33,145 nt of DNA from a virus (IMGVR_UViG_2879742664_000006), one strand, 5' to 3'; numbered from the stretch's first letter, positions 1 through 33,004 are shown. Program-made: numbers and translations. Notes: generated by a model not told the origin, from the sequence alone.

Positions 1-55
1 GTGAACCGCCCCGGGAATCCTGGAGACTAAACTCCCTGAGAAAGAGGTAAACAGG

Positions 56-382
56 ATGACTAAAAATACTCGTTTTTCCCCCGAAGTCCGTCAGAGGGCG
101 ATTCGTATGGTTCTGGAAAGTCAGGGCGAATATGACTCACAGTGGGCGGCAATTTGTTCCATTGCCCCAAAGATTGGCTGTACACCGGAGACTCTGCGTG
201 TCTGGGTACGCCAGCATGAGCGGGATACCGGAGGCGGTGATGGCGGGCTCACCACCGCTGAACGTCAGCGTCTGAAAGAGCTGGAACGTGAAAATCGTGA
301 ACTGCGCCGCAGTAACGATATCCTTCGCCAGGCTTCCGCTTATTTTGCGAAGGCGGAGTTCGACCGCCTCTGGAAAAAGTGA
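56..382 (+). CDS. IS3-family transposase OrfA (HTH DNA-binding subunit)
   Basis: 108-aa [29 protein letters not shown]... with leucine-zipper-like C-terminus ([18 protein letters not shown]), typical of IS3-family OrfA. Confidence 0.9.
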
Positions 383-1269
383 TGCCACTGCTGGATAAGC
401 TGCGTAAGCTGTACGGGGTCGGACCGGTATGCAGTGAACTACATATTGCCCCGTCAACGTATTACCACTGTCAGCAACAGCGACATCATCCTGATAAACG
501 CAGTGCCCGTGCGCAGCGCGATGACTGGCTGAAGAAAGAGATACTGCGCGTATACGATGGGAATCATCAGGTATACGGTGTGCGTAAAGTCTGGCGTCAG
601 TTGTTACGGGAAGGTATCAGAGTGGCCAGATGCACTGTGGCACGTCTCATGGCGGTTATGGGACTTGCCGGTGTTCTCCGGGGTAAAAAGGTCCGTACGA
701 CCATCAGCCGGAAAGCCGTTGCCGCAGGCGACCGCGTAAACCGTCAGTTCGTGGCAGAACGACCTGACCAGCTGTGGGTGGCTGATTTTACTTACGTCAG
801 CACATGGCAGGGCTTCGTCTATGTGGCGTTCATTATTGATGTGTTTGCCGGATACATCGTGGGGTGGCGGGTCTCATCGTCCATGGAAACGACATTCGTG
901 CTGGATGCTCTGGAGCAGGCGTTATGGGCCCGTCGACCGTCCGGCACGGTCCATCACAGTGATAAAGGTTCTCAGTATGTATCGCTGGCCTACACACAGC
1001 GGCTTAAGGAAGCCGGATTACTGGCATCAACAGGAAGTACAGGCGACTCGTATGACAACGCGATGGCGGAGAGCATCAATGGTCTTTACAAAGCGGAGGT
1101 AATACACCGTAAGAGCTGGAAAAACCGTGCAGAAGTGGAACTGGCCACACTCACGTGGGTGGACTGGTATAATAATCGACGATTGCTGGAAAGGCTGGGC
1201 CACATCCCTCCGGCAGAAGCAGAAAAAGCTTATTATGCTTCCATCGGAAACGATGATCTGGCAGCCTGA
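379..1269 (+). CDS. IS3-family transposase OrfB (DDE catalytic domain), normally made as an OrfAB fusion by -1 frameshifting
   Basis: 296-aa ORF overlapping the orfA stop in the -1 frame; integrase-core-like residues (WVADFTY... HSDKGSQY... [15 protein letters not shown]). Confidence 0.9.
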
Positions 1270-1311
1270 GTTCACAGATAAAACACTCTCCAGGAAACCC
1301 GGGGCGGTTCA

Positions 1312-1430
1312 TGCTGAACGTGCGGCCCGTGACTCATTGACCAGAGCAATCCGAAGTCTGTATGACGTGGCTTTTTACGCTGATGATCTGGATGCACTTA
1401 ACGAACTTTCCGAGCTGATCTGTGCCGCAG
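1312..1430 (+). pseudogene. 3' remnant of an unidentified gene trapped between the IS629 end and an IS2 end
   Basis: Open frame ...AERAARDSLTRAIRSLYDVAFYADDLDALNELSELICAAVD runs from the IS629 boundary into the IS2 terminal repeat; no start codon of its own. Confidence 0.3.
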
Positions 1431-1695
1431 TGGATTTGCCCCTATATTTCCAGACATCTGTTATCACTTAACCCATTACAAGCCCGCTGCCGCAGATATT
1501 CCCGTGGCGAGTGATAACCCAGCGCACTATGCGGATGCCATTCGTTATAATGCTCGAACGCCTCTGCAAGGTTCTTTGCTGCCGTTAACCCGTCTGGTTT
1601 GGGCATGATACTGATGTAGTCACGCTTTATCGTTTTCACGAAGCTCTCTGCTATTCCGTTACTCTCCGGACTCCGCACCGCCGTGTTCTTCGGTT
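1431..1695 (-). mobile_element. IS2 right-end fragment (terminal repeat plus 3' end of insD), truncated by IS911
   Basis: Near-identical (1 mismatch seen) to the right end of the complete IS2 at 31416-31680; minus-strand ORF 1442..1768 encodes the InsD C-terminus ([25 protein letters not shown]...). Homology stops abruptly at 1695/1696 where the IS911 repeat begins. Confidence 0.8.
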
Positions 1696-1767
1696 TGAAG
1701 TGGCACACTGAATTTGGCCACCTGAACAGAGGTGATATGCTCACCTCAGAACAACACAGGTGCTCCA

Positions 1768-2936
<1,169 letters not shown>

Positions 2937-2944
2937 CCACTTCA

Positions 2945-3550
2945 AACCGCAAAAAAGCGAACGTCATGCGCCCGGTGGAGTACCAGAACGGCGAAGCATT
3001 CACTATCCGTAACGTACAGGTTATGCCTGAATCCATTCCGGCTGGCTTTAAGGCACTGGCTGACATGAGTCCGTTTGAATCCCTGCTGATTGTGGATTTG
3101 GGCGGAACCACGCTGGATGTGGCAAAGGTTCAGGGGCAACTGGCAGGTATCAGCCAGGTGTTTTGCGATCCACACGTGGGCGTTTCTCTGATGGCCGATG
3201 CCGTACTGTCGGTGATGGCCACTAACGGTATGCGCACCAGTCACCACATCGCCAATACCATTATCGAACATCGCCATGATGAAGCCTGGCTGCGCCAGCA
3301 CATCCACAATGACGCGCATTACGCCAGCCTGATGGCGGTAATTCGTGAAAAGGAAGAAACACTGAAACAACGCGTGATCCGCGCGCTGGCGGTTTTTTCG
3401 GGTTACGGGCGGGTGATGGTTGTCGGTGGAGGGGCGGAGATTGTGGCACCCGCTATCCGCGAAGCCTGCGGAGTTAATGCGACTTTCATCGCGGACGGGG
3501 TGCCACAGTTTGCTCTGGTTAATGGGCTGTACGCAATGGACAAGGAGTAA
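2945..3550 (+). pseudogene. ParM/StbA-like actin-type plasmid segregation ATPase, 5'-truncated by IS911 (C-terminal ~200 aa remain)
   Basis: Contains the actin-fold phosphate-2 motif LIVDLGGTTLDVAKV, preceded by VMPESIPAG and followed by VMVVGGGAE, as in R1 ParM (from memory). The frame opens exactly at the IS911 boundary. Confidence 0.7.
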
Positions 3551-3554
3551 ACCA

Positions 3555-3866
3555 ATGACGACTCCAACCAGACGGATAAGTTTCTATCTGAAGCCCACCG
3601 CCGTCAAGAACGAAGGAGAAGCATGCGCCTGGCTGGACAGCCTTACACCAGAAGCCCGCAAAAGCGGCCAACGCGTGGCTTTTCTGGCCGGGCTGGCACT
3701 TCTGAAAATGAATCCGGCAGAGGCTTATCGACTGGCTGCATGGGCTGGTGATGAAGCGTTATCAGTGACACAAACCAGGACAGAACGCCCCGCATCACAG
3801 CCAGTATCAACCGCACAGATAACCAGTCAGATGGCCGGAAATATCCGGGCGTTATTTCCTGAATAA
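3555..3866 (+). CDS. ParR/StbB-like small DNA-binding partner protein (putative)
   Basis: 103-aa ORF immediately downstream of the parM-like gene, RBS aaggag at 3542-3547; N-terminal ribbon-helix-helix-like region (RRISFYLKP). Assignment rests on position and size. Confidence 0.45.
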   Translation: MTTPTRRISFYLKPTAVKNEGEACAWLDSLTPEARKSGQRVAFLAGLALLKMNPAEAYRLAAWAGDEALSVTQTRTERPASQPVSTAQITSQMAGNIRALFPE

Positions 3867-3929
3867 CACAACATCAGGGCGAGTTCGCCCTGCTCTCCAC
3901 CTCAGAACATAAACAAGGAGAACGACTTA

Positions 3930-4520
3930 ATGAGCGAAATCAACTATCAGGCATTACGTGAACGTTATTCACCTGTGCCAGTACCGAAATGCCCTATTTG
4001 CGGCGAGGAAATGTCAATTCAGCGAATATCTGGAGCACAGGTTGTTTATGCCTGCTCCGGTTATGGTGATGATGGAGATTTCAAAATTGGCCGAACTCTT
4101 GCTGACAAACATTATGAAAAATCACGCGTAACAGTGTTGGATGTCGGGGATCCTGAAGTATTGGCGCTACTTGATTGGCTGGAAACCAAAGACAACCGAA
4201 TCGCTGAACTGGAAAAAATCGCCACTGACTATGCACTTAAATTCCAGAAAGCACAGGACGCATTAAAGCATGCCGCTTTGCTGCATAGCAGGACGGCGCA
4301 ACAAACAAATAATTTTGCAGTATCGCTTCCGGACATAAGCGAATATTTCATTAATGACGTATTTCAGCCCTTGCGATACGAGCGGGATGTTGAAAGAGCC
4401 ATCATAAAGGCTGGCGGAAAAGCATTGTGGCAGGAGAAACACGAGGACAGAACGCATCAGTCATGCGATGTAAATTGTGGATGGTTTAGCCCACTGACGA
4501 CAGATAAAAATAACACCTGA
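3930..4520 (+). CDS. Hypothetical protein with N-terminal CxxC...C zinc-ribbon-like motif
   Basis: 196-aa ORF; CPICGEEMSIQRISGAQVVYACSGYGDD; central coiled-coil-like stretch. No recognisable family. Confidence 0.6.
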   Translation: MSEINYQALRERYSPVPVPKCPICGEEMSIQRISGAQVVYACSGYGDDGDFKIGRTLADKHYEKSRVTVLDVGDPEVLALLDWLETKDNRIAELEKIATDYALKFQKAQDALKHAALLHSRTAQQTNNFAVSLPDISEYFINDVFQPLRYERDVERAIIKAGGKALWQEKHEDRTHQSCDVNCGWFSPLTTDKNNT

Positions 4521-4947
4521 TCCCCCTCAAACCAGGGCGATAATCGCACATCGCCCTGCTGCACATTTGCACAATTTTTTTGAACGAATTTTTGCCCTTC
4601 CAGCCCGCGTGGCGGCTGGATCCGTCAAGGATCCGTGCGTGCACAAAAAAACGCGCTTTTTCTGCGCGCAGGTGACGGGGGAACAGCCCGCGTTTCAGGG
4701 GGTAAATAGCGTTCCCTTAACGATGTCGCAGCGACACGACAGAATGGCCGTATTTCTCACGCTGAGCGTGAAAAATACGTGAGGGATTCTGATTTGATGG
4801 GGTGAAAGGTAAGGCCGTCAAAATCGCACTGAGGCGGCGAGAACATGCAGTCAACGCGGTGGGATTGCGTAAGAGTCTGACCGTCGATGGTGGCGATAAA
4901 CTGGAAGGCGTCGTGAAATTATCTGACTGATACAGGAGCTGGAGAGT

Positions 4948-4972
4948 CGGGGCATAAATTTTTTATGCCCCG
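4948..4972. terminator. Stem-loop between convergent genes (putative bidirectional terminator)
   Basis: cggggcataaa / tttatgccccg perfect inverted repeat with a T-rich loop, just 3' of the portal gene stop. Confidence 0.35.
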
Positions 4973-4998
4973 GCGAAGCAGCAGACAAGCGAAGCGCG

Positions 4999-6041
4999 TC
5001 AGGATGTGGGCTGGATGTCTAACAGTGCGTAAGGGTTAAAGCGGATCACCTCTTCGCCAAGCCAGTCATTGATGTGCTTCATGGCCTCCATGACGGGCAT
5101 CAGCTCGTTAATTGCGTAAACCCGCGCGGCCTTCTCCACATCACCAAACGCACTTTTTTCACCCGGCATCGCCCCCATCAGTTGCGGCGGAACGCGGTGC
5201 GCAGCCAGCACATCATCACGGGATGCCGCCTTAACATTCATGAACTCATCCTTTGCGGTGATCTGCTGGAACGGCAAAATTTGCACCCCCTCTTTGCCCC
5301 CGTTGGGCGCATGAATGAGCACGTTTTTAAACGCACCACCACCACGCGCACCCTGTAGCGTTTCTTTCAGGGAGTCCATGCTTTCGCGGTTTACCTGCGC
5401 GGCACCGATGTAGATGATGCACCCGGCGTGGGATCCGTTGTCGTAATACAGTTTTCTGAACATGTCCGCCGAATGAGACAGGCTGGCCGAGAGTAATGCG
5501 CCGAGATATTCCGGCATGCCGTAGATTTCCTGGTTAATGTCAGGATTCATCAGGTGACACACTTTGCCTGGGCGAAACTGAAACGCATCCTTGCCATCCT
5601 GCACATACCTCCATGATTCAAGATCGCTTCCGCGTCGCATGTATTTCGCCAGGGCGTGCCGTAATTTAAGCGGTTCGCCGAGCATATTGCTTCGAAGCTC
5701 AAGGAATGCGTTACCGAACACAAACCAGTCCAGCGCCAGCGCCAGCGCCGAGAAATCCTGCCGGGAAAGCAGCGGGTGCGGGATGTAGCAACCGAGCAAT
5801 ACATTGCGCTTAAAATAAAGCGCAGACTGATGCCAGGACGTTTGCCGGGCAGCTCTTGCCAGACCGTACCAGTCCACCGGGGTTTCATACCACCGCCCGT
5901 TATCAGCACAGTACATATTGTCCAGCAGGTCAGGCGATAAGGACCATCAAATGTGAATGCACTGAGCGATGATTCTTTCCTGAGCGCATCAGCGAGATCA
6001 ATGCGTGAACTCATGCGCACTTTTTTATTTTTTCTGCTCAT
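4999..6041 (-). pseudogene. Q: P2 gpQ-like portal protein, interrupted by a 1-bp frameshift near 5917-5946 as sequenced
   Basis: N-terminus MSRKNKKVRMSSRIDLADALRKESSLSAFTFDGP in one frame (track ORF 5550..6041), remainder MYCADNGRWYETPVDWYGL...RFNPYALLDIQPTS in another (4999..5916). Combined length 1043 nt is one short of a multiple of 3. Start overlaps the terminase stop (ATGA). Confidence 0.8.
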
Positions 6042-7792
6042 CAGAACTCCATAACCGTGAAACGCTCGTTTTCTCCTTCGCCGCCAATCGGTTCGTTAAT
6101 GACAGCAAGCATGGTTGCCCACGCAAGGTCGCCGTGGCTGATCCCCCTCGCTCGGTCCGTTTCGTAAGTGATAAAGCCGCCCGGTGTTTTCACCTTACGC
6201 ACGGCGTTAAAGGCCGCGACCAGCTCGCGTTCGGCGCGATCGTATTCCCACCGCCCGGCACGCATTATTTGCAGCATTTTCAGTACCAGCGACCGTTTTG
6301 ATGACAGCGTGAAGGTGTACGGAATAGCGGCAGGGAAAAACCGTTTCACTATCTGATAAACAGCCTCCCCGTTCCCGCCCGTCACATCAATGCCGATGTG
6401 TTCCACGTTGTAGCGACACGTGAACTCTTCAATGACTCTGGCCTGTTCTTCAAACTCCAGCCCCTGAACGCGTCGCGTCTCCACCGTTCGAAAACGGCCA
6501 CCAGGAACAGACGGAGGAACCACCACGGACACAGCGCCGCTGTCGCCGTTGCCACTGCTGCCGTTTGCGTCATACCCAATCCATACCGGACGATTCCCCA
6601 TCGGGCGGGGAGCAAAAGGTTTCCAGTCTTTCCAGTCGTCGTATCCGTCAACGCCGCAGCCAATCAGGATATTCAGGTTAAATGCCGATTCCCCTTCGCG
6701 GACAAACTCACACATATAGAGATTGAGGAACTCGTCTTCGGTGTTTTCATCACGAATTTCGTCGATATCGGTGTGTTTCCAGCCGTGATTAACCACATCT
6801 TCCAGCGTGACAATTTGCCGCCACGTCCGGTCAGGGCAGATAAGCCCGTTATGCAGCGTTTTCCAGTCCACAGAAAAACGCTGGCGTTTATGCGAGGCCT
6901 TTTTCTCGTTCCAGCGGTCGCCGTTCCAGTAGGCGTATGCCTCGTGCGTTTCGGTGGATGGCGTGGAGAAGTAGGTGCGCCGCAGTCCGCTGAGGGTTGC
7001 CATAGCGCCAGCCACCTTGCGCAGTTCAGCAAAGCGACTGACCCAGAAAAATTCATCAAAATAAAAATTGCCCGTATAGGACTGTGCCGACGCAGCAGAA
7101 GTGCCGAGAAAATGCAGCTCTGCGCCGTTGGAGAGGATGATTTTATCGCCCCCTTTCAGCTCCACATCAACTTCAGCCGCGGCCTTCTGAATAATGCTTT
7201 TAAACTGGAACGCCTGACGACGCGACGCAGACAAAAAAATCTGGTTACGCTGGTAAGGTTGCGCCACATCGTCACGCAGCGCCATCAGCAGTGCTTCCTG
7301 TGCAAAATACCAGGTCGCCCCAATCTGTCGGGATTTCAGGATCATCCTGTTACGTATCCCGGCTTCCCTGCAAAGGGTCAGGGAGTCAAACCAGCCCCGC
7401 TGATGCCACTCCAGCCTGCTGATGATTTTTTCCCGCAGTGCGGCAATCTGTTCCGGCGTGAAATGATTTTTGAGTTTTTTCGCCCGGCCTTTCTTTCCTG
7501 CGGCCATCACATCCGGCTGGCCATCATGCAGCTTTTTAAGCTGCCGGGTCAGCAGGTCTATTTCCTTAAAGTCACCGCCTGTTTTATTCTGTTTTTCAGT
7601 AAGCTGGATGAGGCGCGCATCGATGGACTGCGTGACACGCTGCCCGGGTGGCGTTTCATCCCACTGGTCACGTTTTTTCCACGCATAAATCGTGTTCGGG
7701 TTTATTCCCATCAGACGTGATATTTCTGCGGGCGGATAACCCTGCCAGTAAAGTTGCCGCGCACGCTGGCGCACAAAAGCGTCCTGAATCAT
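6041..7792 (-). CDS. P: P2 gpP-like terminase large (ATPase) subunit
   Basis: 583-aa intact ORF upstream of the portal gene and divergent from the scaffold gene, the P2 P-Q arrangement. Confidence 0.95.
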   Translation of the reverse strand: MIQDAFVRQRARQLYWQGYPPAEISRLMGINPNTIYAWKKRDQWDETPPGQRVTQSIDARLIQLTEKQNKTGGDFKEIDLLTRQLKKLHDGQPDVMAAGKKGRAKKLKNHFTPEQIAALREKIISRLEWHQRGWFDSLTLCREAGIRNRMILKSRQIGATWYFAQEALLMALRDDVAQPYQRNQIFLSASRRQAFQFKSIIQKAAAEVDVELKGGDKIILSNGAELHFLGTSAASAQSYTGNFYFDEFFWVSRFAELRKVAGAMATLSGLRRTYFSTPSTETHEAYAYWNGDRWNEKKASHKRQRFSVDWKTLHNGLICPDRTWRQIVTLEDVVNHGWKHTDIDEIRDENTEDEFLNLYMCEFVREGESAFNLNILIGCGVDGYDDWKDWKPFAPRPMGNRPVWIGYDANGSSGNGDSGAVSVVVPPSVPGGRFRTVETRRVQGLEFEEQARVIEEFTCRYNVEHIGIDVTGGNGEAVYQIVKRFFPAAIPYTFTLSSKRSLVLKMLQIMRAGRWEYDRAERELVAAFNAVRKVKTPGGFITYETDRARGISHGDLAWATMLAVINEPIGGEGENERFTVMEF

Positions 7793-7946
7793 TGCTCCCC
7801 CTGAGTAATTACAGGAAGATTACCCGCGCGCGAAACTGTTCTCCTTAACCCTCTGTTCTGGCCGTTTTCTTACAACAAAAGCCCTTTGTATCAGCCTGTT
7901 ACGCTTTGCCATCATGACTGAAGAACCAGTCAGAGGGGCAAAAACT
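7793..7946. promoter_or_regulatory. Divergent intergenic region between terminase P (-) and scaffold O (+); expected site of late promoters
   Basis: 154-bp non-coding gap between divergent operons; RBS gagggg 8 nt before the O start. No activator-binding site could be confirmed by eye. Confidence 0.3.
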
Positions 7947-8783
7947 ATGGCTAATGAAAAAAAGACATCCCGCAAAAAGTTTCGCGTGGCTGTCTCCGGA
8001 TCAACTGTTGATGGCCGTGAAATCAGTCCGGTGCATCTGCGTGAAGCCGCCGAGAACTTCAACCCGGATGTTTACGCTGCCCGCGTGAACGTTGAGCACT
8101 ATCTCTCGCCATGCCCGTCAAGCGAATTTTCCGCAATGGGCGATGTCACCGCACTGAGTACGGAAGACATTACGGAAGGTCCGCTGGCCGGACGTACTGC
8201 GCTGTATGCAGAAATCGAACCGACCGAGCGCATGAAGCAGCTTGTTGCGGACGGCAAGAAAATCTATTCCAGTATCGAACTGCACCCGCAGTTCTCCGTT
8301 AACGGGCGCGCCTATCTGGTCGGGCTGGCGATGACCGACACCCCGGCAAGCCTGGGCACTGAGCGCCTGAAATTCACGGCACAGCAACGTCAGGCGGTGA
8401 TGACGTTTAACAGTATCCAGGGTGAAGCGCCGCTTATCTCCGAAGCCATCGAGTCTGAAATCATCGAAATGGCAGAACAACGCCAGGAAGAAGGCACCCA
8501 GTGGTTTAACCGCGTAATGGGGATTATTGGCCGTGGCCGCAAAGCGGATGACGCCAGTTTTTCCCGTATTCAGGAAGCGGTGGAAGGCGTCGCAACGTCA
8601 CAGGCCGACATTATCGACCGTTTTAATGTGCTGGAAACCCGCCATCAGCAGGACCGCCAGAAAATTACGTCACTGACCACAGAGCTGGCAGCACTGAAGG
8701 AAAAACTGCGCACGCAGGACGGCGATCCGCAGAACCGCTTCACCGCAACGGGCGCAGCCTCCGACCAGCTGGCCGACTTCTGA
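7947..8783 (+). CDS. O: P2 gpO-like capsid scaffolding protein
   Basis: MANEKKTSRKKFRVAVSGSTVDGREISPVHLREAAENFNPDVY...; acidic C-terminus; position between P and N. Start taken at the internal ATG 7947 with an RBS. Confidence 0.9.
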   Translation: MANEKKTSRKKFRVAVSGSTVDGREISPVHLREAAENFNPDVYAARVNVEHYLSPCPSSEFSAMGDVTALSTEDITEGPLAGRTALYAEIEPTERMKQLVADGKKIYSSIELHPQFSVNGRAYLVGLAMTDTPASLGTERLKFTAQQRQAVMTFNSIQGEAPLISEAIESEIIEMAEQRQEEGTQWFNRVMGIIGRGRKADDASFSRIQEAVEGVATSQADIIDRFNVLETRHQQDRQKITSLTTELAALKEKLRTQDGDPQNRFTATGAASDQLADF

Positions 8784-8806
8784 TTAGACAAAGGAGCAAA
8801 TTTTTT

Positions 8807-9858
8807 ATGAATCTGGTGATGTCAGATATTACCCGCAACAAGCTGGGTTGCTATATGGCGCAGCAGGTGTCGCTTAATAATATCCCGGTATCTGCACTGG
8901 TGTCGCGATTTACCGTGGAACCCGCGGTGCAGCAGCGTTTTGAAAACGCCTCAAAGGAAAGTACCGAATTTACGAAAAAAATAACGTGATCGGCGTGACC
9001 GACCAGAAAGGCGAAAAAATCCTCCTGGATACCACAGGACCGATTGCGCGCACGAATACCAGTTATGACGGCACAAAACGCCGTAACCCGAATAACGTGG
9101 TTGATCTGAAAAACCGCAAATATCAGTGTGAACAGGTGAACTACGACACGTTTATTTCGTATCCGCAGCTTGATGCCTGGTCGGCACACCCTGATTTTCA
9201 GTCCCGCATCAGCGCACAGATTGCCCGACAGGTGGCGCTTGACCGCATCATGATCGGTTTCAACGGCACGTCTCACGCGGATGAGTCCAACTTCAGCACC
9301 AACAAGCTGCTTCAGGACGTTAACGTGGGCTGGCTGGAGCACATCAGAACCGACGCCAGCGAACGCGTTATGAATGACGTGACGCTGACCTCCCGCAACA
9401 TGGACAACACCGTGGCGCACGCGGGTAAGTATGCGAACGCTGATGCACTGGTACAGGACGCGCGTTCATCCCTGCTAGATGAATGGCACAAGGAAGCTGA
9501 CGACCTCGTGGTGATTATGGGGCGCAACCTGTTTAACTCGCTGCGTCTGCCCGTGCTGAACAGCATCAGCGGCCAGAATCCCAATGCGGAATTACTCGCC
9601 GGGCAGCTCATCCTGTCATCGCGCACCATTGGCGGGCTGGGCGTGTTCCTTGCGCCGTTCTTCCCGGATGCAACGATGCTGATCACCTCGTTCAACAACC
9701 TGTCGATTTACTGGCAGAAAGGTTCAATGCGTCGCCTGATGAAAGACGAGCCGGAATACAACCGCATCGCCACCTACCAGTCCATCAATGACGCTTATGT
9801 CGTTGAAGACTATGGCAAGTGCGCGATGGTTACTGGCCTGAAGTTCGCCGACAGCTAA
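8807..9858 (+). pseudogene. N: P2 gpN-like major capsid protein, frameshifted in an A-run at about 8975-8986 as sequenced
   Basis: Track ORFs 8807..8989 (ends ...ESTEFTKKIT*) and 8986..9858 (...VIGVTDQKGEKILLDTTGPIA...) are both capsid-like and adjacent frames; adding one base in acgaaaaaaataacg gives continuous ...TEFTKKINVIGVTDQ.... Confidence 0.85.
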
Positions 9859-9903
9859 TCAACTCACGGCGGGCATCATGCCCGCCTGTAACGGAGAGCA
9901 AAA

Positions 9904-10650
9904 ATGATTACTCCTGCACAACAACACTGGCAGAACGTGATGGCACAGCGCGCAGGCCGGGCGAATGAAGGCGTGGACCACGCCGCGCGTACCGCGCATG
10001 AAGAGGTGCTGTATCGTCTGCGTCTGGCACAGGCCCGGCTTAAGGGCGTACAGGCCAGAAGCGCGAAAGCCGCCATCAAAAAAGAGTTGTTGCCGGATTT
10101 TTCCGGCTGGATTGAGGGAACGCTGGAGGCTGACGGCGGGCAGCAGGATGAAGTGATTGCCACGCTGATGGTGTGGGCGATTGACTGTGGCGATCTTCCG
10201 CTTGCGCTGCGTATCGGCGCGTATGTAGTCCGTCACAACCTCATCATGCCGGATAACTTTGGCCGTACTGCTGCCACGGTACTGACCGAAGAAATCTGTA
10301 ATCCGGTACTGACGCAGGCCGGGACGGATGCCGACGCGGATTTGTCCGCCTTTATCGAACCACTGGACACCCTCCGGGAGATTGTCACCGACCAGGACAT
10401 GCCGGACGAAGTGCGCGCCAAATTATGCAAAGCGTGCGCCTTTGCCCGCCGTGGCCTGAGTGATGCGGACAGCATGGCCCTGTCACTGAAGCTGCTGCGC
10501 GAAGCAATGCACCTGAACCCGAACGCAGGTGTGAAACGCGAGATTGCAACCCTTTCCCGCGCCCTGAAAAAAGCCGATTCCGCAGCCGAACCAGAAGACG
10601 CCAGCGCACAGCAGGCGCAGGACGAAAGCAGCAAAAAGCAGCAAAAGTAA
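9904..10650 (+). CDS. M: P2 gpM-like terminase small (endonuclease) subunit
   Basis: 248-aa ORF following the capsid gene, as in P2. Confidence 0.9.
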   Translation: MITPAQQHWQNVMAQRAGRANEGVDHAARTAHEEVLYRLRLAQARLKGVQARSAKAAIKKELLPDFSGWIEGTLEADGGQQDEVIATLMVWAIDCGDLPLALRIGAYVVRHNLIMPDNFGRTAATVLTEEICNPVLTQAGTDADADLSAFIEPLDTLREIVTDQDMPDEVRAKLCKACAFARRGLSDADSMALSLKLLREAMHLNPNAGVKREIATLSRALKKADSAAEPEDASAQQAQDESSKKQQK

Positions 10651-10817
10651 AAAGACAACGCGGAAGCCTGCAACACGAAAAACCACCGCGACGCAGAAGG
10701 CGAAGCGCGGTTAACGACTGACCCCGTCAGCGGGCGGCGTGCGCGGTGTTCCAGTTTGACTCCGTGACCGTTTACACCGCGCACCCACCGCCCGATTTTT
10801 TTTCAGGAGTGAACCCC

Positions 10818-11312
10818 ATGACTATAGTTGCCAGAACTGAACCCGGACCCGCAGAGGACGACATCACCGATACCGATGATGGCGATACCCGCATTTCAGC
10901 GGGTGCATTCTGGCCGGATATTGTGCTGCGCGAGCTGCGTCTGGCGGTACGACTGCCGGGGCGCGTGACCACCTCCCGCCTGCTGCATACTGCCACCGGG
11001 GCTGTGGCACACGTTACCCGCGAGCTGGAAGCATGGCAGCAGGAACAGCAGGCAGCTGGCCATCAGACGCTGGCCGATGTTCCGGCACCCGTAATTAACG
11101 GAGAAAGCGTCAATCTCTGGCACTGGCGCAATGCTGTTTATACCGCCACGCGCGCCCTGATTCTGGAGCGTTATCGTGATGCAGACACTACGGACAAGGG
11201 CGACCGCCGGGCAGACGCTCTGGATATACAGACATCGGATTTGTGGCGTGATGTGAGCTGGGCCATCTCTGACATTCTGTGCCGCCCGCGAATCTTTGCG
11301 GAGTTGTGCTGA
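10818..11312 (+). CDS. L: P2 gpL-like head completion protein
   Basis: MTIVARTEPGPAEDD...; RBS caggag before ATG 10818; stop overlaps the next start (TGATG). Confidence 0.85.
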   Translation: MTIVARTEPGPAEDDITDTDDGDTRISAGAFWPDIVLRELRLAVRLPGRVTTSRLLHTATGAVAHVTRELEAWQQEQQAAGHQTLADVPAPVINGESVNLWHWRNAVYTATRALILERYRDADTTDKGDRRADALDIQTSDLWRDVSWAISDILCRPRIFAELC

Positions 11313-11512
11313 TGAAAGTGAAGGCACTGGAAGGCGACACCGTGGATTCGCTCTGTTTCCGGTACTACGGCACGACGCAGGGCGTCACCGAAAAGGTGCT
11401 GGATGCCAACCCCGGACTCTGTCAGCAGGTATTTCTGGACGCCGGGCAGGAAGTGGAGATGCCGGAGCCGGAGAAGAAGAAACGAGAAATGATTCAGTTG
11501 TGGGGGGAGTAG
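11312..11512 (+). CDS. X: P2 gpX-like small tail protein
   Basis: 66-aa MKVKALEGDTVDSLCFRYYGTTQGVTEKVLDANPGL...; position after L. Confidence 0.8.
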   Translation: MKVKALEGDTVDSLCFRYYGTTQGVTEKVLDANPGLCQQVFLDAGQEVEMPEPEKKKREMIQLWGE

Positions 11513-11514
11513 CA

Positions 11515-11838
11515 GTGAGCACCATTCAAACAGGGATCACAGAGCAGGTTATTGCGTGGCTCTTTGACCACCTGCCAACGGTGTATGCAGTAGGCGCGGC
11601 GGTCAGCATTTCCGCGCTGATGAGCCTTTATGACGGACGAACACTGGTTCAGACCGTAACGGGATCGCTGGCGTGCGGCGTTCTTGCCATGGCCGTGGCC
11701 GGGTCGTTGCGCTTCTTCGGGTTTCCTGAAGATGCCGTGACGTTTATCGGCGCATCAATCGGTTTTATGGGTGCAGAGAAAGCACGCGACAAGGTTATTG
11801 CGGCCTTTAATCGCAGGGTGAAGGAGAAGGACGAATGA
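11515..11838 (+). CDS. Putative holin
   Basis: 107-aa GTG-initiated ORF with RBS gggggag; hydrophobic helices (WLFDHLPTVYAVGAAVSISALMSL; LACGVLAMAVAGSL) and charged C-terminus; directly upstream of the endolysin. Confidence 0.6.
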   Translation: MSTIQTGITEQVIAWLFDHLPTVYAVGAAVSISALMSLYDGRTLVQTVTGSLACGVLAMAVAGSLRFFGFPEDAVTFIGASIGFMGAEKARDKVIAAFNRRVKEKDE

Positions 11839-12227
11839 GCAACACATTTAAATTCAGCAGCCGGAGCGAAAAGAATTTGCAGGGTGTAAATCCTGATCTG
11901 GTGAAAGTGACCCGACGGGCACTGGAAATCTCGGAAGTGGATTTTGGTATCACCGAAGGGTTGCGCAGCCGTTACCGCCAGAAGCAACTGGTGGCCACGG
12001 GTAAGAGCCAGACCATGAACAGCCGCCACCTTACGGGGCATGCCGTGGATGTTGTGGCTTATATCGGCAGCCAGATGTCATGGGAATGGCCGCTGTACGA
12101 AAAAATCGCAGCAGCATTCAGACAGGCCAGCCGGGAACTGAATATTCCGGTGGAATGGGGCGGCGACTGGAAGACCCTGAAAGACGGACCGCATTTTCAG
12201 TTACCACACGGAGCCTATCCGGCATGA
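11835..12227 (+). CDS. Endolysin, peptidase M15 (VanY/L-Ala-D-Glu peptidase-like)
   Basis: 130 aa; zinc-binding signature SRHLTGHAVD (SxHxxGxAxD) and downstream DGPHFQL; overlaps the holin stop (ATGA). Confidence 0.8.
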   Translation: MSNTFKFSSRSEKNLQGVNPDLVKVTRRALEISEVDFGITEGLRSRYRQKQLVATGKSQTMNSRHLTGHAVDVVAYIGSQMSWEWPLYEKIAAAFRQASRELNIPVEWGGDWKTLKDGPHFQLPHGAYPA

Positions 12228-12631
12228 AGCTCTGGCCCACGCTTGGCGTCGCTTTCCTTCTGACTGCCGGATGGGGAACATCCATGCGTCTGTCGTGGTC
12301 GCTGGGCCGGGAGAACGCCAGAAACGAAGCGCAGGCCAGCACCCTGAAAAGTACCGCCGACACCCTGAATATCATCAGCGCCGGGGTACAGGATATGCAG
12401 CAGGTGCTGGCGCAACTCCGCGTGGAAAATCAGCAACGCAATCAGGACGGAGAGGTAAGACGTGAACAGCTACGCAACGATATTGCAAAAGATGAATGCG
12501 CCCACGCTTTGCCTGACGCTCGTTTTACTGACAGGCTGCGCAGGCACGCAGAACGCGCCACTGCCAGCGCCGTCAGTCCGGCTTATACCGCAGACGCTGA
12601 CCATACCGGTAACGCCTCCCCCCTTCCCTGA
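12224..12631 (+). CDS. i-spanin (Rz/LysB-like inner-membrane spanin)
   Basis: MKLWPTLGVAFLLTAGWG N-terminal membrane anchor then coiled-coil-like region; start overlaps the endolysin stop; contains the nested o-spanin in another frame. Confidence 0.6.
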   Translation: MKLWPTLGVAFLLTAGWGTSMRLSWSLGRENARNEAQASTLKSTADTLNIISAGVQDMQQVLAQLRVENQQRNQDGEVRREQLRNDIAKDECAHALPDARFTDRLRRHAERATASAVSPAYTADADHTGNASPLP

Positions 12632-12782
12632 CACTCCCACATGGGGAAATCTCGGTATATGGGGCGACCGCCTTCTGGATGCACTGGAAACCTGTAACGC
12701 GGATAAACGGGCCATTGAATTACTGGAACAGCGCAGGCTGCAACGACTGAACAACGAGGATAACAACCATGCTGAAAACTGA
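12492..12782 (+). CDS. o-spanin (Rz1/LysC-like outer-membrane lipoprotein), overlapping the i-spanin
   Basis: MNAPTLCLTLVLLTGCAG lipoprotein signal with lipobox LTGC, proline-rich mature part; +1 frame overlap with the i-spanin and extends past it. Confidence 0.6.
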   Translation: MNAPTLCLTLVLLTGCAGTQNAPLPAPSVRLIPQTLTIPVTPPPFPDTPTWGNLGIWGDRLLDALETCNADKRAIELLEQRRLQRLNNEDNNHAEN

Positions 12783-13236
12783 TTCCCTGCGTGAAGCCAT
12801 GACCCGTTCATGCCGATGGTGTCAGGCTAACCCGGAAAAATTCACCATTTTCGTGGAGAGCGGCAACATTGAAACGACCGGAGAAACCCCATCGTTTGTT
12901 TACCGCTATCAGATGGTGATGTTTGTCATGGATTACGCCGGGGAGCTGGACGACCTCACGCTGCCGCTGCTGGCGTGGTTATCCGAAAATCAGCCACAGT
13001 TGTTGCTCAACCCTGAGCGTAATCAGGACATCAAATTTTCCGCCGTTATCAATGACGATGACAGCGCCGATCTCCTGTTTACGCTCCCCCTGCGGGAACG
13101 CGTTCGCATCACGCGCAGCAGTCAGGGCACACCGCAGGCAGAACACCTGCTGGAGCCAAAACCCCGCCTGCCATCTTCCGAAGGCGACTGGTCGCATGTA
13201 TTCCAGGATGTGACGTGGGGTGAAAGCGATGGATAA
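12769..13236 (+). CDS. R: P2 gpR-like tail completion protein
   Basis: 155-aa MLKTDSLREAMTRSCRWCQANPEKFTIFVESGN...; position after lysis genes. Confidence 0.8.
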   Translation: MLKTDSLREAMTRSCRWCQANPEKFTIFVESGNIETTGETPSFVYRYQMVMFVMDYAGELDDLTLPLLAWLSENQPQLLLNPERNQDIKFSAVINDDDSADLLFTLPLRERVRITRSSQGTPQAEHLLEPKPRLPSSEGDWSHVFQDVTWGESDG

Positions 13237-13864
13237 GGCATTCACTCGCGTGGATGAAACCTTTGAGGCCATCCGCGACAGCCTGAATCAGCAGGCCATC
13301 AATAACATCGCCAGAAAGCTGGCACAGGATTTACGCCGCGCCCAGCAGGCACGTATCCGGCCACAGAAAGCGCCGGACGGGACCGCATGGACACCACGCA
13401 GACGCCACGTAACCCGGATACAGGAGCGCATTCGCTTTATCTGGAATAACGAAGCACGCACGCTGAAAAACTGGCATCACGACACGGGGAAATACGGGCG
13501 AACCATCACCGGGTGGGATGAGGATAAAAACAGCATCCGCACGTTTTACCGGGATGACATCGACCGCTTTCTGGAAATACGCACCCGGCGCATCAACCAG
13601 GACAGCACAAAGCGCGTCCCCATGTTCGTAAAACTGCGCACCGCCCGCTACCTGAAAGCCCGTGCAGATGCTTCCGGTGTGACGGTGGGTTACAGCGGCG
13701 TGGCCGCACGTATTGCACGCGTTCATCAGTTCGGTGAGCGCGATCAGGTTGCGCCGGGCATTTTCACCGATTACCCGGTACGTGAGCTGCTGGGTATCAG
13801 CCAGGCAGATGAGCGCCTGATTTATAACACGGTGCTGGGCCGGATTGCGGAGGCTGTACGGTGA
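13229..13864 (+). CDS. S: P2 gpS-like tail completion protein
   Basis: ...ARIARVHQFGERDQVAPGIFTDYPVRELLGISQADERLIYNTV... resembles the gpS C-terminus; start could be GTG 13220 or ATG 13229. Confidence 0.75.
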   Translation: MDKAFTRVDETFEAIRDSLNQQAINNIARKLAQDLRRAQQARIRPQKAPDGTAWTPRRRHVTRIQERIRFIWNNEARTLKNWHHDTGKYGRTITGWDEDKNSIRTFYRDDIDRFLEIRTRRINQDSTKRVPMFVKLRTARYLKARADASGVTVGYSGVAARIARVHQFGERDQVAPGIFTDYPVRELLGISQADERLIYNTVLGRIAEAVR

Positions 13865-14442
13865 GCGCAGAACTCATGCGGCTACTGAGCAATATCATCC
13901 GCACCGGGATCATCTCTGAAGTTGATGAGAAGTCCTGGCGCGTGCGCGTTCGCAGCGGCGAACTGGAAACAGGTTGGCTGCGCTGGAACACCTCTCGCGC
14001 GGGAGCCTTCAATGTGTGGCTGCCGCCATCACCAGGCGAACAGGTGGTAATTGCCTGCATTGGCGGCAACCCGGAAACCGCCATGATAATTGGCAGCCTG
14101 TGGAGTGATGCCATTCCGGCCCCCGGCAAAAGCCTGAAAGAAATCGTGGTCAGCGCGCCGGATGGCGCGGTGTTCCGCTACGACGCGGACGCAGGCGCAC
14201 TGAGCGCCAGCGGCATGAAAACAGCCACCCTGCAGGCATCCGTCAGCGTGACACTGGATACGCCCGTCGTGGAATGCACAGACCTTCTGAGAACGGCGAC
14301 GCTTGACGTCACAAAAGGGGGAAAGATGAGCGGCAATATCACGCACAGCGGCGGTAATTTCACCTCAAACGGCATCACAGTGCATACGCATAAACACGGT
14401 GGCGTTAAAGGTGGCAGCGATTCGACAGGAGGCCCGCAGTGA
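13861..14442 (+). CDS. V: P2 gpV-like baseplate spike/hub protein
   Basis: GTG start overlapping S stop; ...VVIACIGGNPETAMIIGSLWSD... and C-terminal ...NGITVHTHKHGGVKGGSDSTGGP. Confidence 0.85.
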   Translation: MSAELMRLLSNIIRTGIISEVDEKSWRVRVRSGELETGWLRWNTSRAGAFNVWLPPSPGEQVVIACIGGNPETAMIIGSLWSDAIPAPGKSLKEIVVSAPDGAVFRYDADAGALSASGMKTATLQASVSVTLDTPVVECTDLLRTATLDVTKGGKMSGNITHSGGNFTSNGITVHTHKHGGVKGGSDSTGGPQ

Positions 14443-14789
14443 CAACCCGCTACACAGGAATGAACCCGGACGGAACGGGAAACCTGAACGATATGGAGCA
14501 CCTGAAACAGTCAGTCAGGGACATCCTGACCACCCCGCTGGCAAGCCGGGTTATGCGACGGGAATATGGCAGCCTTGTGCCTGATTTGATTGACGAACCC
14601 ATGAATAACACCACGCGTCTGCAATGCATGAGTGCTGCCGTGATTGCGCTGACACGATGGGAACCCCGCATTGCCCTGGACGCTATCGACGTTGTCTGGA
14701 AGGCAGGAGGCCGCGCCGGGGTGACGCTGTCGGGCACTGTCATGCAGACCATGCAGAATGTTGAATTAACCATCACGCTGAGGGAGTAA
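14439..14789 (+). CDS. W: P2 gpW-like baseplate wedge protein (gp25-like)
   Basis: 116-aa ORF, GTG start overlapping the V stop; position between V and J. Confidence 0.85.
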   Translation: MTTRYTGMNPDGTGNLNDMEHLKQSVRDILTTPLASRVMRREYGSLVPDLIDEPMNNTTRLQCMSAAVIALTRWEPRIALDAIDVVWKAGGRAGVTLSGTVMQTMQNVELTITLRE

Positions 14790-14792
14790 ATC

Positions 14793-15689
14793 ATGCCTGC
14801 CGTTGACCTTTCACAGTTACCGGAACCCGCCATCATCGCGGAGCCTGACTTTGAGGCAATTCTGGCTGACACAAAGGCCATGATGATTGCGTCCTATCCC
14901 GCCGAACAGCGTGAAGCCGTTTCCGCCGCGCTGGAGCTGGAATCGGAACCCCTTAACGTTATCGCTCAAACCATGTCGTTTCGTGAAATGCTGTTACGCC
15001 AGCGGGTCAATGAGGGTGCACGCGCCTGCATGCTAAGCCACAGCGCCGGGACAGACCTGGACAACCTCGCGGGCAATATGAACACAAAGCGCCTGGTTAT
15101 CACTCCGGCAACGGATACCACCGATGCAGTGATGGAAAGTGACACCTCGCTGAGACTACGGGCGCAACGGGCATATGACGGTCTGAGTGTTGCTGGCCCG
15201 TCAGGTGCATACGAGTATTTTGCACGCAGCGCCAGCGGTCTGGTACGCGATGCGCGGGCCATCAGCCCGTCTCCGGCCAACGTGACGGTTTCCATCCTGT
15301 CCACTGAGGGCGACGGCACAGCAACGGAGGCGTTGCTTAATACCGTTCGCGCCGTTCTGAATGCAGAGGATACCCGCCCGGTGGCCGACCGCCTGACCGT
15401 ACAGAGTGCCAGAATCGTGACATGGCGGCTGAATGCAAAACTGTACTTTTACCCCGGCCCGGAATCCGAACCTATTCTGGCCGCGGCTGAATCGTCGTTC
15501 AGGAAGTGGCTGGCTGAGCAGGGGCTTATCGGTCAGGACGTGGCGTTGTCCGCCATTGCTGCCGCACTGCATGTGCACGGTGTGCAACGCGTGGAGATAA
15601 TCGAACCCACACAGAATATGGCCATCAGCGACATACAGGCGGCGCGCTGTGCGTCATTCACCATCAGCGAAGGTGGACGCAATGAGTAA
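14793..15689 (+). CDS. J: P2 gpJ-like baseplate assembly protein
   Basis: 298-aa ORF in the V-W-J-I order. Confidence 0.9.
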   Translation: MPAVDLSQLPEPAIIAEPDFEAILADTKAMMIASYPAEQREAVSAALELESEPLNVIAQTMSFREMLLRQRVNEGARACMLSHSAGTDLDNLAGNMNTKRLVITPATDTTDAVMESDTSLRLRAQRAYDGLSVAGPSGAYEYFARSASGLVRDARAISPSPANVTVSILSTEGDGTATEALLNTVRAVLNAEDTRPVADRLTVQSARIVTWRLNAKLYFYPGPESEPILAAAESSFRKWLAEQGLIGQDVALSAIAAALHVHGVQRVEIIEPTQNMAISDIQAARCASFTISEGGRNE

Positions 15690-16212: not shown

Positions 16213-16214
16213 GC

Positions 16215-24754: not shown

Positions 24755-25265
24755 TCAGCCAAGCCCAAGCGCGGAACGGATGCGATCGGGCACAATGTCC
24801 TTGCCGTCCTTCCGGTAAATGAAGTTCAGCAGGTCAATCTCCCACAACGGGCGATCGTTAACACTCAGCTTGTAGTAGGTGTTTTAATGGCGTAAGTGTG
24901 TGATGTGGCTTCGCCCTGTTTGGCTTCCCCCATATCAATTTCCGTCACACGTCCGCGCATTTCGACTTCATACAGGTCGCTTTCTGCATCGGTGTAGTAT
25001 TCACCCGCAAAACGCAGCAGCGTGCCGTCAATCGTGCCGCCATACTTAAGGAACAGCTCACGAACTGCGCCCCCATGACAAAGCTCGCATCAAGCGCGGA
25101 GTCGTCCAGACCGAGATCAATACTTACCGCACCCATCATGCCACCACCCCGGTAGCTGTCGGTTTTGCGCGTCAGCTTAGGCAGAGTGACGGACGTCACA
25201 TTACCCACTTCGTTTTCACCATCCACAAACAGCGTAAAAAAGCGAAGATGTTTTGGCACAGCCAT
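24755..25265 (-). pseudogene. FII: P2 gpFII-like tail tube protein with two 1-bp frameshifts as sequenced
   Basis: N-terminal part in track ORF 24945..25265 (MAVPKHLRFFTLFVDGENEVGNVTSVTLPKLTRKTDSYRGGG...); tube-like sequence continues in two other frames (...GGAVRELFLKYGGTIDGTLLRFAGEYY..., then ...YYKLSVNDRPLWEIDLLNFIYRKDGKDIVPDRIRSALGLG*). Frame changes at a C5 run (25070-25074) and a T4 run (24883-24886). Confidence 0.8.
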
Positions 25266-26606: not shown

Positions 26607-27716
26607 ATGACCGACACCACCATGCAATTGCTCAGTCAGGGCACGGCCCCCGTGAAAATGCCGGATTTTGATATTCTCTCGGAGGGTAAAACGCTGTCAG
26701 GCGTGGCGGAGCGCCTGATGAGCCTGTAACTGACCGACAACCGGGGATTTGAGGCGGACCAGCTCACCATCACGCTGGATGATGCGGATGGTCAGTTGCA
26801 GCTACCGCCACGGGGCGCGCGTCTGACGGTTCTCATTGGCTGGAAAGGGGAACCGCTGACAGAAAAAGGCACTTACATTGTTGATGAAATCGCTCACGAA
26901 GGACCGCCGGACAGGCTGACTGTTTCAGCCAGAAGCGCAGATTTTCGGGATGAATTTAACGTTAAACGTGAGGTGTCCTGGCATGATGTGACCGTTGAGC
27001 GTGTGGTATCCGCCATCACTCATCGGTACGGTCTGAAACCGCAAATCAGCGAAATGCTGATGGATATCGAAATCGACCACGCCGACCAGACCGAAGAAAG
27101 CGACATGTCCTTTCTTACGCGCATGGCGGAAATGCTGGGAGCAATCGCCACGGTAAAAAGCGGCAATCTGTTATTCATCATGCCAGGTGGTGGCGTGAAC
27201 GCACAGGGGCAGCCGTTGCCCTCGTTCGCCATTACACGCAGCAGCGGCGATCGCCATCAGTTCCGCATTGCTGACCGCGAGGCGTATACGGGGGTACGCG
27301 CCTACTGGCTTGATCTTAATTACGGGAAAAAGAAAAAAGTCAGCGTGAAACGCCGCAAACCGCCAAAACCCAAAAAGGAGAAAAGCAGCAGTCGGGAAGG
27401 CGACTATATGGAAGGTGCGGAAGGCAACGTGTTTGTGTTACGCAAGACTTATCAGAACGAGCAGGCAGCAAGACGCGCAGCGGCGGCAAAGTGGCAGCAG
27501 CTACAACGCGGAGCCGCATCATTCTCCATCACGCTGGCGCGTGGTCGTGCAGAACTCTATCCCGAAATGCATGGCACAGTGACAGGCTTTAAAAGCGAGA
27601 TTGATTATCAGGACTGGACTATTGCAAAAGCCGAGCACACCATTGATAACAGCGGCTTTACCACGCAGCTTGAACTTGAAGCAAAAATCCCGGAATGGAT
27701 AGCAGAAACAGAATAA
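26607..27716 (+). pseudogene. D: P2 gpD-like tail protein with an in-frame TAA stop at codon 41 (26727-26729)
   Basis: ATG 26607 with RBS agggaggg; track ORFs 26475..26729 and 26796..27716 are in the same frame, separated only by TAA; D-like sequence reads continuously across it (...GVAERLMSL*LTDNRGFEADQLTITLDDADGQLQLPPRGARLTVLIGWKGEPL...). Confidence 0.8.
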
Positions 27717-31219: not shown

Positions 31220-31415
31220 ATGTTCCGTTGTCCGCTTTGTGGCGCATCTGCCCGTATCCGCACCAGTCGTCCGGAAAATGATTCAAACACCGTGAGACAA
31301 AAGTATTATCAGTGTAACAATCTAGAATGCGGCGTATGTTTCTCAACACTGGAAGCCTTCCACAAATTCACTTCAAAGCACGCCTCCCCCATTCACTCAT
31401 CAGAGGGCATCCCGT
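31220..31415 (+). pseudogene. ogr: ogr-like zinc-finger late-gene activator, 3' end split off by IS2 (remaining codons at 32746-32823)
   Basis: MFRCPLCGASARIRTSRPENDSNTVRQKYYQCNNLECGVCF... (CxxC...CxxxxC); the IS2 terminal repeat begins at 31416 inside the frame, which resumes after the IS2 left end as ...PWHELPTSHRGNNQMSLPLPQN*. Confidence 0.8.
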
Positions 31416-31426
31416 TGGATTTGCCC

Positions 31427-32331
31427 CTATATTTCCAGACATCTGTTATCACTTAACCCATTACAAGCCCGCTGCCGCAGATATTCCCGTGGCGAGCGAT
31501 AACCCAGCGCACTATGCGGATGCCATTCGTTATAATGCTCGAACGCCTCTGCAAGGTTCTTTGCTGCCGTTAACCCGTCTGGTTTGGGCATGATACTGAT
31601 GTAGTCACGCTTTATCGTTTTCACGAAGCTCTCTGCTATTCCGTTACTCTCCGGACTCCGCACCGCCGTGTTCTTCGGTTCAAGTCCCAACATCCGGGCG
31701 AACTGGCGTGTTTCATTAGCCCGGTAGCATGAACCATTATCCGTCAGCCACTCCACTGGAGACGACGGAAGATCGTTGCCGAAGCGGCGTTCCACCGCTC
31801 CCAGCATGACGTCCTGTACTGTTTCACTGTTGAAGCCGCCGGTAGTCACCGCCCAGTGCAGTGCCTCACGATCACAGCAGTCCAGCGCGAACGTGACACG
31901 CAGTCTCTCTCCGTTATCACAGCAGAACTCGAACCCGTCAGAGCACCATCGCTGATTGCTTTCTTTCACGGCCACTCTGCCTGTATGTGCCCGTTTCGAT
32001 GGCGGTACAGCAGGTTTTCGTCAAGCAACAGCGCATTCTGGCGCATGATCCGGTAAACACGTTTGGCATTGATCGCAGGCATACCATCAAGTTCTGCCTG
32101 TCTGCGAAGCAGCGCCCATACCCGACGATAACCATACGTGGGCAGCTCTCCGATAACATGGTGTATACGGAGAAGCACATCCGTATCATCAGTGTGACGA
32201 CTGCGGCGGCCATCCATCCAGTCATCGGTTCGTCTGAGAATGACGTGCAACTGCGCACGCGACACCCGGAGACAACGGCTGACTAAGCTTACTCCCCATC
32301 CCCGGGCAATAAGGGCGCGTGCGCTATCCAC
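31427..32331 (-). pseudogene. insD: IS2 transposase OrfB (InsD) with an internal 1-bp frameshift near 32019-32025
   Basis: Split into track ORFs 31966..32331 ([12 protein letters not shown]...[28 protein letters not shown]) and 31427..31975 ([17 protein letters not shown]...); the shifted frame reads [24 protein letters not shown], so one base is missing around cttga(a)cgaaaacc. Confidence 0.8.
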
Positions 32332-32654
32332 TTTTTTGCCCGTCCATATTCAACGGCTTCTTTGAGGAGTTCATTTTCCATCGTTTTCTTGCCGAGCAGG
32401 CGCTGGAGTTCTTTAATCTGCTTCATGGCGGCAGCAAGTTCAGAGGCAGGAACAACCTGTTCTCCGGCGGCCACAGCAGTAAGACTTCCTTCCTGGTATT
32501 GCTTACGCCAGAGAAATAACTGGCTGGCTGCTACACCATGTTGCCGGGCAACGAGGGAGACCGTCATCCCCGGTTCAAAGCTCTGCTGAACAATTGCGAT
32601 CTTTTCCTGTGTGGTACGCCGTCTGCGTTTCTCCGGCCCTAAGACATCAATCAT
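32289..32654 (-). CDS. insC: IS2 transposase OrfA (InsC)
   Basis: [56 protein letters not shown]...; track ORF starts 15 codons upstream at 32699. Confidence 0.85.
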
Positions 32655-33004
32655 CTGTACTCCAATGACTAGTCTAAAAACTAGTATTAAGACTATCACT
32701 TATTTAAGTGATACTGGTTGTCTGGAGATTCAGGGGGCCAGTCTACCGTGGCATGAACTGCCAACTTCACACAGAGGAAACAATCAGATGAGTTTGCCCT
32801 TACCTCAGAATTAACGAGCAGAATTGCCGGAGTAACAAAAAAGCGATAGATTACGCGCGGGTGCCTTTCGGCTGATGGTCGGAGGGAATACCTGAAGGCC
32901 AGATGTGGAAAGGCCCCGGAAAACATTTTTGTTTAACCGAGGCCCTAACCGTCTACCCTAAGCAAGTGATAGGTTAGCGCCTCCCCGAAAAAGGAGCAAG
33001 CGCT

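Follow-up and report, generated by a model that had tools for sequence, protein, structure and literature searches.

A split major capsid gene N in a P2-like prophage of Shigella boydii and S. flexneri 6 is very probably a genuine, inherited frameshift pseudogene

The major capsid gene N of a P2-like (P88-type) prophage carried by the S. boydii / S. flexneri 6 lineage is split after 60 codons, and the split gene is very probably a genuine, vertically inherited frameshift pseudogene in a defective element. The prophage was analysed in a stretch of 33,145 nucleotides, referred to here as the window, and the coordinates of its features are collected in Table 1. Directly established were the lesion itself, its occurrence in identical form in independent assemblies, the lack of it in matching E. 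coli prophages and the presence of other lesions in the element.

The frame opened by ATG 8807, which is preceded by a Shine-Dalgarno sequence rated as good (AAAGGAG), was found on translation to end with ...ACC GAA TTT ACG AAA AAA ATA ACG TGA (TEFTKKIT*), as the original prediction had stated. The remainder of the gene lies in the adjacent -1 frame, also as stated; the first start codon of this frame is GTG 8986, overlapping the upstream TGA (GTGA), and the frame is already open from 8944. The window reads AGTACCGAATTTACGAAAAAAATAACGTGATCGGCGTGACC at 8960-9000, and three-frame translation indicated that a -1 shift anywhere in 8944-8989 gives a full-length capsid protein. Instead of a single uninterrupted ORF of ~350 codons, the gene thus consists of 60 + 290 codons in different frames. 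The two ORFs are not a chance pair, since they are contiguous halves of one PF05125 (Phage_cap_P2) domain; in Pfam, the 60-aa piece covers profile positions 4-49 (E 8.5e-7) and the 290-aa piece positions 50-324 (E 7.4e-102). The 3' fragment shows 100% amino-acid identity to residues 60-350 of the intact protein WP_001055089.1.

It had been proposed that one added base would give a continuous capsid protein of about 350 aa, and insertion of one base does give a protein of 350 aa. This repaired protein scores 390 bits against PF05125 (cutoff 27), passes the equivalog cutoff of TIGR01551 (major_capsid_P2; 252.3 vs 219.65 bits) and aligns end to end with P2 gpN (PDB 7JW1_A; E 1e-81), with residues 8-349 matching gpN 4-344 unbroken over the junction. 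A tblastn map of the relatives' genes showed the head-gene synteny of P2, with Q-P on one strand and O-N-M-L on the other. By the criteria of sequence, structural homology and synteny, the gene is best read as a pseudogene of a P2-family major capsid gene, and its assignment as a P2-type N was upheld. P2 gpN is uninterrupted, whereas N is here broken after codon 60. Under standard decoding, translation would stop at this point and yield a 60-aa N-terminal peptide, with the C-terminal junction peptide ESTEFTKKIT; the GTGA overlap could permit termination-reinitiation, giving a 290-aa fragment without the N-terminal 60 residues. Neither product is the capsid protein, and the claim that no full-length capsid protein can be made holds under standard decoding. 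In P2 gpN, the first 31 residues are removed at maturation and the next ~30 form part of the N-terminal arm.

Table 1. Features of the window, with the changes found in them
Feature	Position	Strand	Remarks
Left end	1..2945		IS3-family elements 1-1311 and ~1696-2945; insertion-sequence fragment 1431-1695 (265 bp)
Portal gene Q	4999..6041	-	Frameshift: 10-bp deletion between GGTCA direct repeats at 5933; also an in-frame 6-bp insertion at 5744
In-frame A7/T7 run in gpO	7957-7963		Gene intact; run also in functional relatives
Capsid gene N, 5' fragment	8807..8989	+	60 codons, premature TGA 8987-8989; tblastn to intact N residues 1-59
Overlap with both frames open	8944..8989	+	46 nt; three-frame translation
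Lesion site	8975..8983	+	A7 run 8975-8981, then single T at 8982 (intact relatives: TT)
Capsid gene N, 3' fragment	8986..9858	+	290 codons, -1 frame, TAA 9856-9858
Small terminase gene M	9904..10650	+	10-bp tandem duplication AAAGCAGCAA at 10637-10646
A_AAA_AAA in tail-fibre gene H	16265-16271		GCA AAA AAA TTA, canonical, in frame; gene intact; run also in functional relatives
Invertible tail-fibre segment	~17500-20187		Orientation differs between genomes
Alternative tail-fibre assembly gene	18768-19292	-	+1 insertion at 19284, codon 3-4, inside invertible segment
Invertase gene	20238-20834		Product 100% identical to an E. coli one
In-frame A7/T7 run in gene E	24423-24429	-	Gene intact; run also in functional relatives
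Tail tube gene FII	24758..25265	-	Two 1-bp homopolymer deletions: T5>T4 at 24882, C6>C5 at 25070
gpD	26607..27716	+	Nonsense TAA 26727-26729 (intact relatives: TCG)
Cargo ORF	27965-31084	+	1039 aa, between gpD and ogr
ogr, late-gene activator	31220..32811	+	Split by insertion sequence 31416-32745

The original prediction had located a 1-bp frameshift in an A-run at 8975-8985. Its effect is as described and its position nearly so: the run is an A7 at 8975-8981, and the missing base is most simply a T adjoining it. The closest intact relatives (99.6-99.7% identical) read ACG AAA AGA ATT AAC GTG (T K R I N V) at the junction, phage P88 and E. coli GDSC2BY4G read ACA AAA AAA ATT AAC GTG (T K K I N V), and the window reads ACG AAA AAA AT- AAC GTG; the N gene is 1053 nt long in all intact relatives. 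Most simply, the lost base would be the T of the ATT (Ile59) codon, just 3' of the A-run, between 8982 and 8983, and its loss would be accompanied by G>A at 8979 (AGA>AAA; AAAAGAA to A7), which makes the run seven long. An equally short account would have the G deleted and a T>A change; both accounts need two changes in a stretch of four bases. The intermediate intact allele, ACG AAA AAA ATT AAC, was absent from 5,426 complete E. coli genomes, and a gapped-pattern search for it gave 0 hits among GTDB species representatives and 1 hit in IMG/VR, which is the lesion form; the search did not help in dating or polarising the two changes. Since the direct intact ancestor allele was not found, a two-step origin of the lesion is something we only infer.

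Over 1-19858 and 17265-33145, the window is 100.000% identical to CP026811.1 (at ~1010055-1043199 of that record), the chromosome of S. flexneri serotype 6 strain 64-5500 (PMC9455713). The junction GAATTTACGAAAAAAATAACGTG was found to be identical in 14 distinct Shigella records, its carriers including S. boydii serotype 4 Sb227 (CP000036; PMC8767353), S. boydii ATCC 8700 (PMC9430107), S. boydii ATCC 9210 (PMC6456863), S. boydii 602068, a hybrid assembly of Illumina 118x and PacBio 30x reads (PMC7545283), and the S. flexneri 6 strains FDAARGOS_714 and 703427. Related isolates had been suggested as a check on the lesion, and it proved identical in every close sister assembly (S. boydii / S. flexneri 6), a result that is partly so by construction, the sister loci having been retrieved by exact match to the N fragments. 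The uninterrupted N frame that would have spoken against the prediction was found in no sister assembly; N is intact only in more distant E. coli prophages. Exact copies of the two products, of 60 and 290 aa, occur in 1122 and 1219 blocks of public assemblies, respectively, >20 complete chromosomes included, and on 636 and 690 contigs at NCBI, where both fragments are named 'MULTISPECIES: P2 family phage major capsid protein [Shigella]'. S. flexneri 6 groups with S. boydii and not with other S. flexneri (PMC9455713, PMC8767353), and the distribution of the lesion therefore fits vertical descent. Public sequence has contained the lesion from the Sb227 genome onwards at the latest, both halves are catalogued as proteins, and a literature search found no paper singling the lesion out.

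There are ~1,045 complete E. coli genomes with this capsid gene, none of which matches the lesion. When a 101-nt junction query was compared with 5,426 complete E. coli genomes, 1047 records covered the junction, none at an identity of at least 99%; the best E. coli record reaches 98.0%, that is, a substitution plus a gap. All of the E. coli matches listed (40/40) span 102 bases, thus holding the extra base, and lie in an annotated intact capsid gene. A lesion shared with E. coli prophages was rejected on this ground, as no complete E. coli genome is at least 99% identical at the junction. A phase-variable run length was likewise rejected, no length variation at the tract being present among the 14 records.

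A homopolymer miscall in one assembly, with the real gene intact, might be thought of, given that the lesion site adjoins an A7 run, that other lesions in the window are also 1-bp homopolymer changes (T5>T4, C6>C5) and that some other Shigella drafts contain many scattered homopolymer indels. However, the same sequence is present in 14 independent records, Sb227 and Illumina+PacBio hybrids among them, and in hundreds of assemblies; the lesion is a substitution plus a deletion rather than a plain change of run length; and two further lesions, each of 10 bp at direct repeats, bear no signature of error. The chance that the split is a sequencing or assembly artefact is consequently next to nil.

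The Shigella copies of N have ~5 variable sites, and divergence among the Shigella copies is 0.05-0.6%. A second deletion in N, of 11 bp, was observed in CP026866, which would be expected once selection on the gene had ceased. In all 14 records, the 290-codon 3' fragment is otherwise undisrupted. Such an intact 3' fragment, together with the many intact prophage genes, could suggest constraint, yet it would carry no weight, because the divergence is only 0.05-0.6%.

The prophage is located between btuC and ihfA. Intact prophages of E. coli O145:H28 strain 16003 (L006) and of E. coli GDSC2BY4G (L038) served as references, and the window shares with them a collinear block of 23-27 kb at 98.5-98.6% identity. 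Relative to both, insertion sequences at the left end of the window occupy the place of the integrase, the repressor/immunity and early genes, gpA and the 5' part of parM. From their transposase sequences, the left-end elements are presumably IS629-, IS2- and IS911-like and the element within ogr is presumably IS2-like. The transposase orfB of this last element is itself split (121 + 182 aa). The insertion-sequence fragment at the left end is a copy of one end of the ogr insertion sequence (99.6% identical); because this 265-bp end copy adjoins another IS3-family element, it suggests that the early and replication region was lost through a deletion mediated by insertion sequences. The tandem duplication in gene M alters its last ~19 codons (248 aa vs 266 aa), and the 10-bp events in portal and gpM are typical replication-slippage mutations, the presence of which varies among sister chromosomes. 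The two lesions in FII and that in gpD were found in 7/7 Shigella chromosomes checked, whereas E. coli copies with an identical sheath protein lack them. Still intact are the large terminase, scaffold, lysis, baseplate, sheath and tape measure genes.

Since ogr, portal, tube and gpD are inactive and the integrase and gpA are gone, the prophage is judged non-functional; from its sequence, it should be able neither to excise, replicate and activate late genes nor to build a particle. The lesion in N would not decide virion production, as the prophage holds about ten other lesions that appear disabling, and no virion would be possible whatever happens at N.

The lesions differ in their distribution. 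The integrase and repressor are kept in CP026866 and CP026766, of which the former has neither the M duplication nor the +1 in the tail-fibre assembly gene and the latter has the M duplication and no +1. In CP011511, the +1 is present and the M duplication absent; most sister chromosomes, though not all, have the +1. Sb227 and ATCC 8700 combine the lesions in N, M and the tail-fibre assembly gene, the S. flexneri 6 group has the portal deletion in addition, and the 6-bp portal insertion was seen, among the sister chromosomes, in CP026811 only. The lesions thus appear roughly nested among sister chromosomes, with the two exceptions of CP011511 and CP026766.

These results suggest a course of events in which a 1-bp deletion arose through ordinary replication error in the A/T-rich tract and became fixed by drift in a host lineage in which pseudogenes are known to accumulate. 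Decay would have continued after the loss of N with the portal, small terminase, tail tube, gpD, ogr and tail-fibre assembly genes, and the integrase, repressor and replication gene would have been removed by insertion sequences. The mutational mechanism, neutrality and the order of events are, in this account, what we infer. Gene decay in Shigella has been described as an incipient stage of host-adaptation (PMC3218036), and in the portion of that report drawn on here the decay takes the same forms, namely, frameshifts, nonsense codons and insertion-sequence hits that are lineage-specific and nested and that occur in Shigella but not in matching E. coli; no difference in kind from the lesions of the prophage was apparent there.

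A split gene may nevertheless be expressed if a -1 ribosomal slip, or an extra A in the mRNA, yields some full-length capsid protein, the frameshift then being tolerated or programmed. A -1 shift or +1 A within 8944-8989 would indeed restore 350 aa (TKKNNV..., I59N), and the junction peptide of the -1 read-through product would be ESTEFTKKNNVIGVTDQK, also given as ...FTKKNNVIGVTDQK. An A_AAA tetramer stands in the right frame, and such motifs can frameshift in E. coli (PMC4066793). However, the zero-frame heptamer is G_AAA_AAA (ACG AAA AAA ATA) and not the canonical X_XXY_YYZ (as defined in PMC4066793), and even good heptamers without a stimulator yield just 2-10 times the background of 0.055% in E. 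coli (PMC4066793). The downstream RNA (89 nt, beginning 1 nt after the A-run) folds somewhat better than shuffles (z -2.1), but as the sequence is the same in intact relatives, the fold would not have evolved for recoding.

Slippage rescue of interrupted genes has been documented in C. rodentium tssM (A11, ~20%; PMC4256274) and, according to a citation in the part of PMC1088944 used here, in S. flexneri mxiE. As far as these sources were drawn on, tssM and mxiE resemble the present case in that a stop follows soon after the A-run and the rest of the gene lies in another frame; they differ in that the run is here only A7, the split is absent in E. coli homologues and the element is non-functional. 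The slippage sites documented in these sources are longer (A8, A9, A11; PMC1088944, PMC4256274), and programmed transcriptional slippage calls for a long homopolymer, the run here being A7. The split is not conserved either: none of the 1047 E. coli records is at least 99% identical at the junction, and the listed matches and the phage relatives examined have a single ORF. Further, in-frame A7 runs exist in prophage genes that need a full-length product, which is an internal sign that A7 alone would not be strongly slippery in this prophage. Each particle requires capsid protein subunits by the hundred. Portal, tube, gpD and ogr are dead regardless, and trace read-through would be irrelevant here. 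Taken together, recoding is a very unlikely explanation of the split, and a plain frameshift pseudogene is the preferred one. In-frame runs of the kind mentioned were observed in gpO and gene E, and the tail-fibre gene H has a canonical slippery heptamer (Table 1).

Another possibility is that the prophage has been kept for use by the host, as a tailocin, as a source of capsid fragments directed against invading P2-like phages or as a carrier of the 1039-aa cargo, capsid loss serving to ground the element. In its favour, the invertase is intact, as are most of the genes for tail, baseplate and lysis, the cargo ORF is full length in 8/9 loci carrying it, and the element persists across an entire clade of Shigella. 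Against this, each of the seven Shigella chromosomes examined has a broken tube (two frameshifts) and a broken gpD (nonsense), and in the window an insertion sequence splits ogr, on which late transcription depends. The phage genes contain ~1 lesion per 3 kb, and at this density the lack of any lesion in the 3.1-kb cargo or in the 0.9-kb fragment is not significant. Domestication is therefore hardly credible as the reason for the split of N, and neutral decay of the gene remains the favoured account. A working tailocin was ruled out by the broken tube, gpD and ogr.

The cargo ORF has a GC content of 0.33, compared with 0.54 in the phage backbone, and no recognisable domain was found in it in Pfam, NCBIfam, PADLOC or PHROGs; it is named 'MFS transporter' by PGAP. 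It is also present in the intact prophage of E. coli GDSC2BY4G at the same attachment site.

An appropriate annotation for the 33-kb region of S. flexneri 6 / S. boydii would be that of a prophage remnant which is not inducible; in the protein databases, the two entries named 'capsid protein' are halves of one pseudogene. Beyond this bookkeeping the significance is small, ordinary prophage decay in Shigella explaining the lesion fully. The case can also serve as a worked example of how a homopolymer-adjacent frameshift is separated from a sequencing artefact: it recurs unchanged in independently produced assemblies, matching E. coli prophages lack it, and other, roughly nested lesions accompany it. 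Two mild by-products are the 1039-aa cargo gene, intact and unannotated on a dead prophage, and the possibility that P88-type capsid genes have a recurrent frameshift hotspot.

The P88-type phages and prophages closest to the element (P88, KP063541; 500465-2; Citrobacter Shae_phiSM; E. coli O145:H28; GDSC2BY4G) have an N gene with 94-99.7% nucleotide identity to that of the window, and the GDSC2BY4G prophage shares with it the ihfA/btuC attachment site and the 1039-aa cargo gene. Unlike the window, these intact relatives have an uninterrupted N of 1053 nt and intact portal, M, FII, D, ogr, integrase and gpA. P88 and phiSM have been reported as active phages (PMC6456863).

A different P2-like prophage was found to have the same 60+290 split through another deletion, CTT ACA AAA AAA -TT AAC (A8>A7), which lies at position ~10168-10176 in the loci L039-L044, 1-2 nt from the lesion site of the window. 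This prophage, in which gpA is intact and the lysis module differs, is carried by S. sonnei 53G, S. sonnei 3226-85 and a small number of further assemblies; its N allele shows 42 differences from that of the window in an alignment of 1053 columns. The intact A8 form of the S. sonnei-type allele occurs in two complete E. coli genomes. The A8>A7 lesion leaves a canonical A_AAA_AAA, at which a -1 slip would recreate the exact wild-type protein. Several scattered homopolymer indels that resemble sequencing error were noted in 4 of the 6 carriers, L040 and L043 being reasonably clean, and the value of the S. sonnei-type lesion as strong evidence for a hotspot is weakened by these indel-rich carriers. 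At most, it hints that the A/T tract may be a mutational hotspot. It is highly improbable that the tract of codons 57-59 is a recurrent frameshift hotspot at which low-level recoding keeps capsids partly functional, or that the prophage persists because its cargo is useful to Shigella.

The invertible tail-fibre segment differs in orientation between sister chromosomes, and this holds even within S. flexneri 6, where CP162080 is opposite to its close relatives CP026811, CP055124 and CP160646. The prophage, although otherwise dead, may thus have kept an active site-specific inversion.
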